Origin: Eledone cirrhosa
Taxonomy: Eukaryota
Direction: 5' to 3'
DNA length: 64,000 nt
Assembly: GCA_964016885.1 (NCBI GenBank)
Contig: OZ024744.1
Span: forward strand, 52,142,001 to 52,206,000
Shown here: positions 8,822-29,120 of the stretch, one piece after another
Layout of the letters: each line of letters begins with the position of its first letter
Numbering within the stretch: position 1 is the first letter of the stretch
Position numbers and translations under genes: made by a program
Notes under the pieces: model-generated
The model's input: only the letters and a program-made list of their open reading frames with translations
What the model was told of the DNA's origin: nothing
Databases searched by the model: none

Positions 8822-8870
8822 GTCCATTCCTGATGATTTCAAACGAATGAAACAGTGCTAGTTTTGTAGG
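8822..8870 (+). ncRNA. Minimal hammerhead motif, second family (Penelope-like)
   Basis: CTGATGA(8830)-TTTCAAACGAAT-GAAA-CAG...TTG-TA. The same family occurs at 29.9, 50.8 and 57.8 kb. Confidence 0.55.
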
Positions 8871-10420
8871 CTATAGGAAATGGATGCATAACATCTGGAA
8901 CGAGATTGGTCTATTTAAATTAGATGAACACAAACTGGACGGGAAGGCACGGGTAATAAGAACTAATGGATGGCTAAGCGAGTTGGAACTGGAGGAACTG
9001 AGCAGAGAGATTAAGTAGGAAATGGAGAGTGTCAGGCAAACGAACCAGTGGGAAATGAAGGTGAAGAGGTTGAGAGACCTGAGGAAGCATCCGAAGCAGA
9101 AATGATCTGAATGCTGAAATAAATAATACCTGGAACAAAGACACGACCATTGAAGAAATGAATGCTGACGGGCTAGGACAAGATTTGGTTGATATCCTAA
9201 CAGACAACCATGTTCAATGACTGCTTGATGTCGGGTGAGGTACCAGAGTGGTTGACAAAATGTACCACAGTTCCGGTAATGAAAGACCGAATCAAGGGTA
9301 ATGATGTTACCAGATACAGACCCATCACATGTCTGTCCGTAATGTGGAAACTGTTGACAAGCATTATGTTTGAGGAAATCTACCATCAGCTCCACACAAA
9401 CAACTTGCTACCGGACGAACAGAAAGGATGCCGAAAGAAGTCCCGTGGTACAAAGGACCAGTTACTTATTGATAAGATGGTAATGAGGAATTGCAAGAGG
9501 AGACACACTGGTCTTGCCATGGGATGGATAGAATACAAAAAGGCATTCGACATGGTACCTCATTCTTGGATAACCAAAAGCCTAGCAGATAACATGAGAC
9601 AGTTGTTGAGCAAAAGTATGAAGTCTGGGAAACAGAGTTAACATCGGGTGGAGAATCCTTGGGAGGCGTGAAGATCAAGAGAGGTATCTTCCAGGGAGAT
9701 AGTTTGTCCCCTCTCCTGTTTGTCGTTGCCCTGATCCCCCTGACCGTTATATTGCGAAAAGTGAGAGCAGGATACAAGTTGGAAAAAGGAGAGCTTACCA
9801 TCAACCAGCTCCTCTTAAACTCGTTGGGAAGAGTGAGAAGGAGTTGGATGTACTTGTTGACACTGTCCGTATTTTCAGCAATGATATATAAATGGAATTT
9901 GGTATAAATAAGTGTGAAGTCCTAGTGATGAAGAGGGGTAAATTGAGCAGAAGCAACGGAATCCAGGTACCAACAGGGGAGATGATAAAGGAAATCGACA
10001 CTGAGGAGGGATACACATATTTAGGTGTTCTGGAGGCAGATGACATCAAGATCAAAACAATGAAGGAATTGATAAGATCTGAGTACATTCGGAGAGTAAG
10101 GATCTTATTAAAATCACATCTGAACAGTAGGAATGCCATGAGTGCAGTAAATTCCCGAGCTGTGTCTATTATTAGGTACAGTGCAGGAATTCTGAAATGG
10201 AATGTTGCTGAACAAAAAGAAATGGATCGGAAGACTAGGAAGCTATTGACTATCTACAACATATTCCACAAGAGGAATGATGTTGATAGATTCTACTTAA
10301 AGAGATCTGACGGTGTTAGAGGTCTTATCAGCAGAAAGGAGATGGAGAAAAACAGCCTGAACAAATATGTGGCTGACAGTAGGGAGCCAATGCTCAAAAT
10401 TGTACTGAAGGAGAGGACAG
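8869..10420 (+). mobile_element. R4/Dong-like LINE copy 1, degenerate, internally deleted and 3'-truncated
   Basis: Homologous to 23975-26360. Motifs YRPITCL, EQKGCRKKSRGTKDQLLID, GIFQGDSLSPLLF and YTYLG. About 0.8 kb is deleted at ~9200. Confidence 0.9.
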
Positions 10421-10458
10421 TACGATGTGGATTTTGTGCGTGTAAAGATTTTTATTAT

Positions 10459-13400
10459 TTATATAAGAAAAGAAAAAAGACATAAAACATATATATATAT
10501 AAACAATAAAATGAAAATTAAAACAATGAAAAATTCCCCACAAATGCTCGGGCACTGAACGAGTGCGTGCACAACGGTTTCGTCGCTATGCGCGCATCTC
10601 GGACAGGCTCGGCTGACGGCACTTCCGTACCTGTAGAGCTTATCTCGAACCGGTAGCGCTCCCCGGTAGCACTGCCAGGCCAGGGACTTTTGGAAGTTAT
10701 CCATAGGCCCCGGGCTGAAAGTTCTCCGGAAGAGAGCAAGCAGCTGATCTTCTTCGACGCCCAGGATCTCTCCGAGAACGTCGTCGCTCTTCCCCTCCAC
10801 TAGTCCTCTATAGAACGTCGAGGTGGATGTTCCACCGATACTGGTGCCCAACTGGGAGAGGACAGTGAGCGCCTGGAGACATTCCAGTTTCCAAGCGCTA
10901 TCCCTCGGTCTTTTTCTGACCCAGGACTGCAGCTCCGTCAAGGAGACGAGCTGTGGGAAGTACCAGAGATGTCGCAGACTCAGCGCATCAAGGAAGTACC
11001 AGAGATGTCGCAGCCTCAGCGCATGTTTGCGCATCATCAGCCATGGCATGCCCAGTCCTCCACGCAACGGGTGTTGACAGCAGATGGATCGTCTGACCAT
11101 GGGAGCGCTGGAGCAAGGGACGACGGTGAGGCGGTAGCAGATGACGGATGCGATGTACGCATTCGCCACTTCCGCCCGGTCTTTCAGGGACAGCTTCCTC
11201 TCAGCCCATTTCTGGGTGAGGGAGGCCACCCTGCTCGTCACCTCGTTCCAGTTTTTCTCCATCTGGAGGTCCGGTCCGAACCAGACCCCGAGCAATTTAA
11301 GCGGTCCGTCCGTCCAACGCCCCACGACGCTGTCGGGCGGTATGGACTTGCCTCTCCAGGTTCCTAGCTGCAAGCCTACCGACTTTTCCTGGTTTATCTT
11401 TGCTCCTGTCACGGTTTCGTATTCCTTGAGAGCGGTGCCGAGCATCTGGACGTGTCTGGTGCTCGACACCACCACGGTGACGTCGTCAGCGTAAGCCGAC
11501 TCGGATTTCCCGCATCCTAGTTCGCGTGGGACGCCCCTCATCGCCCCCAGTTTGTGCAGTAACGGCTCGAGAGCCAATACGTACAAGAGGGACGAGAGGG
11601 GACAACCCTGGCGGACTGAGCGCATGATGCTGAACGGCTGCGACAGGTGACCGTTCACCCTCACAACTGAGCAGATGTCGTTGTACATTGCAGCGATCCA
11701 ACCCCTGAAAACGGACCCAAAACCGGCTGCTTCGACGACCGCCGCCAGGTACCGATGGTCGACCCTATCGAATGCTTTGGATTGATCCAAGTTGATCAGA
11801 GCCCCACCCTTATCAGGTTCTTTAACCACCCTCTCTATGATGTATTGCGTGAGGTGGAGGTTGTCGTGTATGGATCTGTCCGGGATGGCGCATGTCTGCG
11901 CCTCTCCCACCAGACCCTTGACGACAAGCACCAACCTCGTTGCTAACACCTTGGCCAAAATCTTGAACTCTGCGTTTAGGAGGGTTATGGGCCTGAAGTT
12001 ATCAATAACATCCCCCTTGTTCGGGTCTTTTCTCAGCAGCGCGACTGCTCCCCCGCTCACAAAACTGGGAATGCTCCCGTTCTGCTGCCAGTTGCAGTAG
12101 ACGTCTGCCAAGAGGTCACCGAACAAGTCTGGCATAAATGCATTAAGCTCGTAGGGCAGACCATCTAAACCTGGCGATTTACCTCTGGTGCAGTTAGCCA
12201 TCGCTTCCTGTATTTCACCGGCTGTTGTTGGCTTTTCGCAACACTGTGCTGCGGTCGTCGAGAACCGAGCCAGTCCGTCGAGGTATGCACTAAAGTCCAT
12301 GCCCCGATCCGGGCCGCCGTCGCTCCCGAACAGTTCAGCAAAGTGCTGCTGAAAAGCTTCACACATCCGCTCGAGTTCGGGCATCACGCACCCGTTTTGG
12401 TCAGACAAAGAGCGAATTGTGGCTTTATTGCACGTCGCGCCTCTACTACCCGGCCCCATTGGACGGATTTTGTCCTCTCGTGTTTCAGAGCACGCGCTCT
12501 AGCTCTGACAACGCAGCCTTCGTGTTTTGCGTTGAAGAATTGGTCGAGTGCCAATCTCGCCGCAAGCACGTCGGTTGTGATGCCTGTCCTAAACGCCTCT
12601 TCTAGCTTTCTGACTAGCTCTCCTTCTACTCTATTTTCCTCTATCACTACTCCTTTGCTAAACATAATCGACTCTACTTTAATTGCCCTTTTCAGGGCGA
12701 ACCACCACCTGTTGTTGACGACCGCTCCCGTCAACGCCCGCTTAACTAATACGCTAATCCGGTCTCTGTAGGGTTTGCGCGCCGGGAAAGACGCGTTCAG
12801 CTTCCAGTAACCAGGCCATTGTCTATGAAGTCTGTCTATGTCGATATCACAGATCACACATTTGTGGTCTGTGTAGTCGACTATTTTAAATTGTGTACAA
12901 CTTATACTAGCCTTATCTAGTTCCCTGCAGAATACCCTATCTAGATACGATCTGGATGACCCGATGCGGTTTGTCCATGTCCACATTGGCACATTCGGGT
13001 GATCCAGTCGATACCTGTCAGACAGTTCAAAACGTCTGAGCAGGTTGGTGAGGCTCTTGCACCCTCCTCCCATATCCACTAGCCCCACACGATCCCAGCG
13101 TGCATCCAAGATACCGTTCCAGTCGCCCACTAACACTAAAGAGCGGGACGTTCCAAGAAAGGTCTCTAGACGTCTGAAGAAATCTGGCTGTCCTGTCCCT
13201 GTTGGGGCGTAGACGGCTACTAGCCTGAAAGCATTGCCTTCGCTGCCGGTCACGTCCAGCACCACCGACTTACCTTCTGGGTCCAGGAAGATGGCCCGTA
13301 TCGCGAGATCCAAGCCTCTCCGAAAAAGGACGGCAACCCCTCCCCCCGATCCTGGACAAATGGGAGATGCGTATACATCGTAGCCGCCGAAGATCGGTGC

Positions 13401-13543
13401 GAAGGCCCGTGCCTCGGAGATTCTGGTTTCACTGATGGCCACCACATCTATGTTTAGTGATGTGAGGTCATTGAGCAGGTGACCCTGCTTCCAAGATCAC
13501 TCCAGGCCACGTACTTTATACTGCCTATTCTAAGTACGGCCAT
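10459..13543 (-). pseudogene. Tx1-like ORF2: AP endonuclease + reverse transcriptase (frameshifted, internally deleted)
   Basis: APE motifs ISET, VYAP, VGDWN, YLDR, TDH; PGYWKLN; RT motifs KSPGLDGL, FRPITLLN, DQSKAFD, RQGCPLS, YADD; CPRC..ET..HALVQCP. Confidence 0.9.
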
Positions 13544-28780: not shown

Positions 28781-28813
28781 AGTAATAACAATAATAATAA
28801 TATTAATAATAAT

Positions 28814-28999
28814 GGTTTCTTTTATAGGCACAAGGCCAGCAATTTGGGGTGAGGGGAAAGTCCATTAAATCGACTCCAGTGCGTGACTGGTACTTTATTT
28901 TATTGACCCAGTAAGGATGAAATACAAAGTTAACCTCGTAAAAGGCTATAACTTAATGCTGCAAAGCATGGTTTCTGACGCTCTGCCGATGCTGCCAAT
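28814..28999 (-). mobile_element. Family-1 SINE, tail-to-tail with Dong copy 4 in the same (TAA)n
   Basis: The minus-strand 3' end is CCTTGTGCCTATAAAGAAACC(ATT)n; internally deleted. Confidence 0.8.
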
Positions 29000-29004
29000 A
29001 ATAA

Positions 29005-29120
29005 TGCTTTTTTTTTTATTAACCACAAGGGTTGACATAAAGTATAACATTAAGGACAACACAAGACTACAAATGGCTATTTCTGTGTGTAAAAAAACAA
29101 TAACAAAATTATATGTATAA
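29005..29120 (-). mobile_element. Tx1-like LINE 3' UTR stub
   Basis: TTTATTAACCACAAGGGTT.ACATAAAGTA.ACATTAAGGACA matches 15893-15940; flanked by AATAATAAT. Confidence 0.8.

Follow-up and report, generated by a model that had tools for sequence, protein, structure and literature searches.

Among the long interspersed nuclear elements (LINEs) of the Tx1 clade, Kibi, Koshi and crocodilian Tx1 are described from the microsatellites (TC)n, (TTC)n and (TTCC)n/(TTTC)n, respectively, and the crocodilian short interspersed nuclear element (SINE) SINEU is described with Tx1-Mar (PMC4494074). Insects, molluscs and cnidarians are reported to carry Dong, of the R4 clade, in (TAA)n (PMC7998251, PMC3812793), and that half of our finding is already known. 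Keno, a Tx1 element with an apurinic/apyrimidinic endonuclease (APE), and Utopia, with a restriction-like endonuclease (RLE), reached one U2 small nuclear RNA (snRNA) site in parallel (PMC4640811), and SART and TRAS lie in opposite orientation in the (TTAGG)n of Bombyx (PMC10088271). In octopuses, Dong-R4 and L1-Tx1 are known as active classes (PMC13282606, PMC9115989, PMC8967140), with 13 recently active 'L1-Tx1' and 5 'Dong-R4' families given for Octopus vulgaris (PMC13282606). Here we describe a 20-kb array in a window of 64,000 nucleotides from Eledone cirrhosa (contig OZ024744.1, labelled C28, positions 52,142,001 to 52,206,000; genome 3.0 Gb), in which Dong and Tx1-like LINEs share one microsatellite, (TAA)n on one strand and (TTA)n on the other.

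Co-occupation of (TTA)n/(TAA)n by both LINE types is genome-wide. The array is quite probably one of many in which Tx1-like elements occupy the TTA strand and Dong the TAA strand, likely by way of opposite first nicks, and which likely grow by a target duplication of about 18 bp that leaves repeat on both sides of an insertion.

A microsatellite occupied with opposite polarity

Three Tx1-like families (A, B and C), which have different 5' ends, sit in (TTA)n. Among the family A heads first sampled, 30/30 followed TTA, the query containing four tract bases and the window copy being one of them; with a query beginning inside the head a further 10/10 did so, and queries starting within the head gave 30/30 for family B and 29/30 for family C. 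An exact 24-base family A motif had 207 matches in the genome, 152 of them with an exact 8-base TTATTATT run immediately before the head, compared with 122 of 142,700 random positions (0.085%) having such a run directly upstream in 50 random 10-kb regions from seven contigs. On contig C1 all 60 family A heads were in TTA (44 exact, 15 fetched and each showing three or more units inside 32 bases, and the last at locus L146). The upstream flanks of copies elsewhere are therefore TTA and not random, in line with the proposal of a first-pass annotation of this DNA that the Tx1-like LINEs target the repeat.

All 117 full Tx1-like 5' ends scored were in TTA, and in 105 of them the flank ended in ATT, the phase of the 5' joint being fixed (..ATT followed by G). 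At the 3' side, TTA was found at 122/127 Tx1-like ends and TAA at none, and TAA at 104/107 Dong ends and TTA at none. The tract is also present at 22 of the 36 primary truncated Tx1-like 5' ends and at 75/91 primary truncated Dong 5' ends, and full Dong 5' ends were in TAA in 20/28 cases by a strict score and in 29/30 by eye, which bears out the known target of Dong; the (TAA)n target is shared by a second Dong family, at about 40% protein identity. That TTA is merely an encoded head or tail was ruled out by the tract at truncated ends and by 41 joints between Dong and Tx1-like heads (found in a looser pass over the fetched loci, together with 29 tail-to-tail joints). Since truncated copies cannot inherit an encoded head, the upstream TTA is the target.

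The opposite strand polarity that had been annotated for the window holds strictly across the genome, being kept by 218/218 unambiguous neighbour pairs across tracts, with three more pairs ambiguous. Two apparent exceptions were rejected, L019 (= L136) as a SINE next to a strand-switching tract and L137 as a low-complexity false match. Tail-to-tail joints of Dong and Tx1-like elements number at least 854 genome-wide (exact pattern, gap of 12-42 bases; reversed control 0), in agreement with the annotated idea that the 3' tract of one type serves the other. Among the first 30 Tx1-like tail motifs on C1, 12 continue into ATT, five of these lying opposite a Dong tail, and one random region (L187) contained a four-element mixed array of its own. 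In random DNA, 7/8 tracts of at least 30 bp adjoin a member of the group, compared with 8/27 shorter tracts, so that shared use of long tracts largely accounts for the co-clustering. Two other repeats recur beside ATT/TAA tracts (L199, L232 and L350 for one, L197 and L206 for the other) and could be the tails of further LINE or SINE families.

That these arrays are random insertions passively surviving in microsatellite-rich DNA, or an artefact of assembly, is scarcely credible, being refuted by both the base-precise phase of the 5' joint and the strict polarity; moreover, young copies 99% identical to one another lie on many contigs, and a public sequencing run matches positions 29090-29420 of the window without any difference. 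In target-primed reverse transcription the first nick is made on the strand to which the element RNA is complementary, and opposite polarity therefore means opposite first nicks: the Tx1-like APE endonuclease would nick the TAA strand first and the Dong RLE the TTA strand.

Structure of the array in the window

From the sequence, its open frames and self-comparison, the window holds four Dong pieces, all on the plus strand, and four Tx1-like pieces and one SINE, all on the minus strand, which confirms the annotated strands. All the LINE parts are retrotransposons of the non-LTR kind, which lack long terminal repeats. In array order, with reverse transcriptase abbreviated as RT and open reading frame as ORF, the features are:

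8869-10422, plus strand, Dong D1; older, 86% identical to D3, with an internal deletion and both ends lost
10423-15857, minus strand, copy of Tx1-like family A; 5' end complete, with ORF1 and ORF2 (APE endonuclease, RT, zinc finger), broken, the last ~45 bp deleted
15858-15886, no strand, TAA tract separating the family B tail from the family A head
15887-21034, minus strand, Tx1-like family B copy corresponding to positions 852-6029 of a full copy (95%); 5' part lost, 3' end intact
21035-21372, minus strand, Tx1-like family B fragment of 336 bp from the endonuclease region; 5'-truncated, starting in the tract and abutting the next copy without a tract
21370-21403, no strand, (TAA)10-11 flanked by two truncated 5' ends and part of neither element's tail
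21404-22633, plus strand, Dong D2; 5'-truncated
22634-22699, no strand, (TAA)20 separating the D2 tail from the D3 head
22700-27248, plus strand, Dong D3; full length, a single ORF (RT, CCHC, PD..D restriction-like endonuclease) with one frameshift
27249-27357, no strand, interrupted TAA tract of 109 bp between D3 and D4
27357-28781, plus strand, Dong D4; 5'-truncated
28781-28813, no strand, degenerate TAA tract, the Dong tail lying opposite the SINE tail
28816-28999, minus strand, SINE; its terminal ~25 bp similar to the Tx1-like tail
28997-29006, no strand, TAA run of three units only, between the SINE and the Tx1-like 3' end
29007 to about 29126, minus strand, diverged Tx1-like 3' end (about 80%); three ATT units behind it, its 5' end without a tract

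The six joints that had been named as unrearranged are all TAA runs, the last of only three units. Two inner joints are without a tract. At 10422 a Dong tail and a Tx1-like tail were once face to face, until a deletion by way of microhomology of about 9 bp took the Dong tail, the tract and the Tx1-like tail; the other is the Tx1-like/Tx1-like joint at 21035. The contig of a related organism diverges left of 29163. When the run of a second organism was compared with positions 20900-30300, abundant family B-like and SINE sequence was found at 90% identity and little of the window Dong family, contig depth being a rough measure.

An origin of the arrays mostly by tandem duplication, or by co-transposition of read-through blocks, in place of independent insertions has some basis elsewhere in the genome. 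Seven head-to-tail family B copies on C3 (L322-L326; G000:C3:316816000-316865999) are 99.1-99.9% identical and one interrupted joint occurs twice among them, which indicates that local duplication acts too in some single-family arrays, and three tandem heads of the (ATCT)n family described below have one joint in common. In the window, however, the Dong pieces share 86-93% identity (differing by 7-14%) and have different break points, which rules out a single tandem duplication as the source of this array, and the identity between families A and B is only 76-81%. The neighbours of Tx1-like heads are also varied, comprising unique DNA, Dong elements truncated at many points, SINE tails and Tx1-like tails. 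Tandem duplication is thus refuted for the window array and contributes to some single-family runs; as a general account it is very improbable.

Outside the array, the window contains a 9.4-kb degenerate (GTA)n array (38232-47682) beside a 13-bp tandem repeat (36943-38177), ACC/AAC arrays (1-2756 and 36293-36946), an interstitial stretch of seven degenerate TTAGGG units (31056-31097) and a near-perfect inverted repeat of 117 bp (29849-29965), with partial copies at 50765-50807 and 57749-57799, which may be a small DNA transposon.

LINE families, sister targets and the SINE

In intact Tx1-like copies elsewhere in the genome the ORF1 frame spans 702 residues and includes a CCHC knuckle (CX2CX4HX4C), a separate ORF1 of this kind being a feature of the Tx1 clade; ORF1 gave no Pfam match above cut-off. 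The ORF2 of an intact copy matched Exo_endo_phos (the N-terminal APE endonuclease), RVT_1 and zf-RVT (a C-terminal zinc finger), and its closest solved structure was L1 ORF2p (E 3e-52), although the APE domain alone found nothing among solved structures at E 0.001. Homologues included the 'Transposon TX1 149 kDa' protein (311 bits) and human L1 (180 bits), the two scores coming from different databases. Among named homologues, the one closest to the APE-type RT came from Argonauta hians (74% identical), and in a quick RT tree of 65 rows this sequence and the window Tx1-like families formed one clade with support 99. The tree was made with the careful search unfinished and without bona fide Tx1 or L1 references (the homologue searches for references yielded a single protein with TX1 in its name and no protein named L1), and 'Tx1-like' for this reason denotes resemblance, not clade placement.

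Families A and B are about 90% identical in the endonuclease. Families B and C have ORF2 in common (95%), with family A at 81% identity, and differ at their 5' ends: the copies compared (L264 for B, L278 for C) are 95% identical over the 3' 3.8 kb and differ in the 5' untranslated region and ORF1, which looks like a 5' module swap. Additional distinct 5' ends right after TTA tracts (L132:6700, L058, L059, L147 and L276) probably represent more Tx1-like families. Dong, judged from an intact relative, has one frame of 1141 residues, with an RT best matched by R2 and a C-terminus that aligns weakly with the R2 endonuclease region across the PD..D motif (E 0.003); a single-sequence fold of this C-terminus (predicted local distance difference test 36) was not used. 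The Dong/R4 clade is further characterized by an N-terminal Myb-like domain and a 5' HDV-like ribozyme; no ribozyme or other RNA family was matched by Rfam in 8000-31000, and ARAGORN found no tRNA gene in the array region.

Random regions also yielded Tx1-like copies whose ORF2 is about 67% identical and whose 3' motif is that of families A to C (the ATT families), this motif being followed by (ATCT)n. Copies of this sister family (L157:2004-7900, L281-L321) are young, with intact frames and tandem runs. Three ATCT units lay within 30 bases of 29/30 of its heads (background 44/90,700), and TTA of 0/30; a strict adjacency score had given only 6/30, low because of short fillers at the joint, and the heads were rescored accordingly. 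The tail motif common to the ATT and ATCT families occurs 33,171 times in the genome, and 15 of the first 30 occurrences on C1 enter ATCT-like repeats. The endonuclease of the ATCT family is 60% identical to that of family B; the two diverge in the segment that precedes the SYLD motif, and in L1 this segment is the DNA-contacting hairpin. Dong-like families with 30-40% protein identity were likewise seen beside (CATA)n-type repeats, not (TAA)n (L151:3062-4606, L170:2988-3230, L190 and L197).

The SINE resembles the Tx1-like elements at its 3' end, its last 30 bases scoring 37 against family A and 11-17 against Dong (2/5000 random 30-mers reach 37), and SINEs in tracts lie on the Tx1-like strand. 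It had been annotated as sharing the (TAA)n target, a claim that the copies in random DNA do not support: 30 heads were found, 21 with the tail in range, and a long tract was present at 0/21 (at none of the other nine by eye), whereas 9/21 showed a duplication at a short site. Eight of these duplications start ATTA and run for 15-19 bp from the first base after the tail. The SINE thus appears to be a relaxed user of short ATTA sites, not a TAA specialist. It is probably moved in trans by Tx1-like proteins, although another LINE may be its partner. That the SINE duplications begin with ATTA points to 5'-TAAT^R-3' as the probable APE nick, and the 3' end of the RNA, with the conserved motif and a few AUU units, probably pairs with the primer; the LINEs would require long tracts, and the SINE would tolerate short ATTA sites.

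The behaviour of the SINE bears on where specificity resides. It could come mainly from RNA-DNA pairing, ORF1 or host targeting, with a relaxed, AT-rich APE nick and with polarity set by the RNA tail and not by the enzyme. Insertion of a SINE with the same tail at short ATTA sites in unique DNA fits this idea and suggests that the nicking requirement may be short, and a read-through RNA would include the downstream repeat. Nevertheless, the ATCT family retains the 3' motif but has an endonuclease only 60% identical, and the known specificity of the Tx1 clade has been attributed mainly to the endonuclease (PMC4494074). We regard this possibility as doubtful; it is in any case compatible with the array model and only shifts the determinant.

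Taken more broadly, the data tentatively suggest, at a level of confidence somewhat short of even, an octopod LINE radiation that partitions microsatellites. Changes in the endonuclease would have moved Tx1-like elements from one to the other of (ATT)n and (ATCT)n while one 3' RNA motif was kept, and (TAA)n and (CATA)n would have been divided among Dong-like elements. The APE and RLE elements that use TAA would feed each other target, most long TAA tracts then being joints of self-extending mixed arrays, and these Tx1 targets would be undescribed ones.

Target renewal and comparison with known systems

The annotation had proposed that each new tail regenerates the target. This was not sustained, since informative sites show a target-site duplication without an added tail, although only one such site comes from the ATT families: L128, with a duplication of 19 bp. 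In the ATCT sister family, three of nine scored loci were informative (L312, L318 and L321, with 20-24 bp); L314 was dropped as a repeated tandem joint. The tracts between a Tx1-like tail and the next Tx1-like head have a modal length of 18 and reach at least 18 in 33/35 cases. Renewed target therefore likely stems mainly from a duplication of about 18 bp and not from the encoded tail, and slippage-added units may contribute to it; each insertion would leave repeat on both sides for the next.

It may still be asked whether repeat tails that both LINE types encode (UAA or AUU units, which slippage would lengthen) are the main source of fresh target, given that repeat follows nearly every 3' end, that Dong terminates in a conserved degenerate TAA-like stretch and that insertions could themselves lengthen tracts, which would also account for the excess of group members at tracts of at least 30 bp. 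This is unlikely: the 3' flank opens with duplicated target at L128, L312, L318, L321 and the eight SINEs, pure ATT extends for no more than 6 bases after 15/131 Tx1-like tails, and the flank of L125 passes after one ATT into (TTC)n. Under the target-duplication model, old arrays would erode by deletions, and single-family runs could also duplicate locally.

Several points weigh against the model. Primary truncated ends lay outside the tract in 16/91 Dong and 14/36 Tx1-like cases, many of these ends abutting other element pieces and the remainder being partly unexplained; a further 43 Tx1-like and 12 Dong break points, none in a tract, were classed as internal and excluded. Most loci were ascertained with the elements as queries, as best-scoring copies, and overlapping loci may double-count a few joints. 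Both outer borders of the array (8869 and about 29126) are without a tract, and no empty allele was seen in reads or contigs aligned to 20900-30300 and 29090-29420, where repeats dominate the depth. Only 1/50 full-length ATT-family loci (L128) gave an informative duplication, pure tracts hiding duplications, and the 5' interruptions of L134, L138, L143 and L144 have no counterpart on the 3' side.

With these families, the few targets listed for L1-group LINEs grow by two. APE target choice has been called not well understood in a review (PMC3812793), and the ATT and ATCT families, young, with intact frames, an endonuclease 60% identical and the same 3' motif, are a natural pair for probing it; the strict LINEs and the relaxed SINE provide a second contrast, between action in cis and in trans. 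For cephalopod genomes, the arrays offer a mechanism for large clusters of transposable elements; many long TAA tracts are moreover element joints, a point of relevance to assembly, to the calling of insertions and to microsatellite markers.

Like Kibi, Koshi and crocodilian Tx1, as described in the source cited, the Tx1-like families are L1-group APE LINEs lying within a microsatellite with repeat on both sides; unlike them, they occupy (ATT)n, with a sister in (ATCT)n, repeats that are not pyrimidine-only, in a mollusc host, and the Tx1 label is given by resemblance. As annotated, no (TTA)n-specific Tx1 appears to be described: none specific for (TTA)n or (ATCT)n was found in the literature searched, and Repbase, which was not compared, may list such families. 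The window SINE, like SINEU, is likely mobilized by a Tx1-type LINE, but SINEU-3 retains the LINE target, whereas the window-type SINE has the common 3' motif and far more relaxed sites. The Dong elements conform to known Dong in their single ORF with RT, CCHC and PD..D endonuclease and in their (TAA)n target, and depart from it in that two families about 40% identical occupy one target in alternation with APE LINEs and other Dong-like elements lie in (CATA)n. As in Octopus vulgaris, L1-Tx1 and Dong-R4 elements are both young and abundant; the parts of that account which we consulted mention no target sequence, polarity or mixed array (PMC13282606).

The annotated convergence of two unrelated endonuclease classes on one repeat stands as regards co-location and polarity, but it is not unprecedented. 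Keno and Utopia, as far as the accounts cited describe them, are likewise APE and RLE elements on the same target, but they have identical 3' flanks, and hence the same direction, in a low-copy gene, whereas Dong and the Tx1-like elements occupy the two strands of a repeat that is dispersed and outlasts insertion. SART and TRAS likewise lie in opposite orientation within one repeat and form mixed arrays, but both are R1-clade APE elements at telomeres, whereas here RLE and APE elements meet at interstitial microsatellites. Each ingredient thus has a precedent, while three features appear to be new: the target repeats, the opposite polarity of APE and RLE elements within a dispersed repeat, and the sister pair with ATT and ATCT targets.

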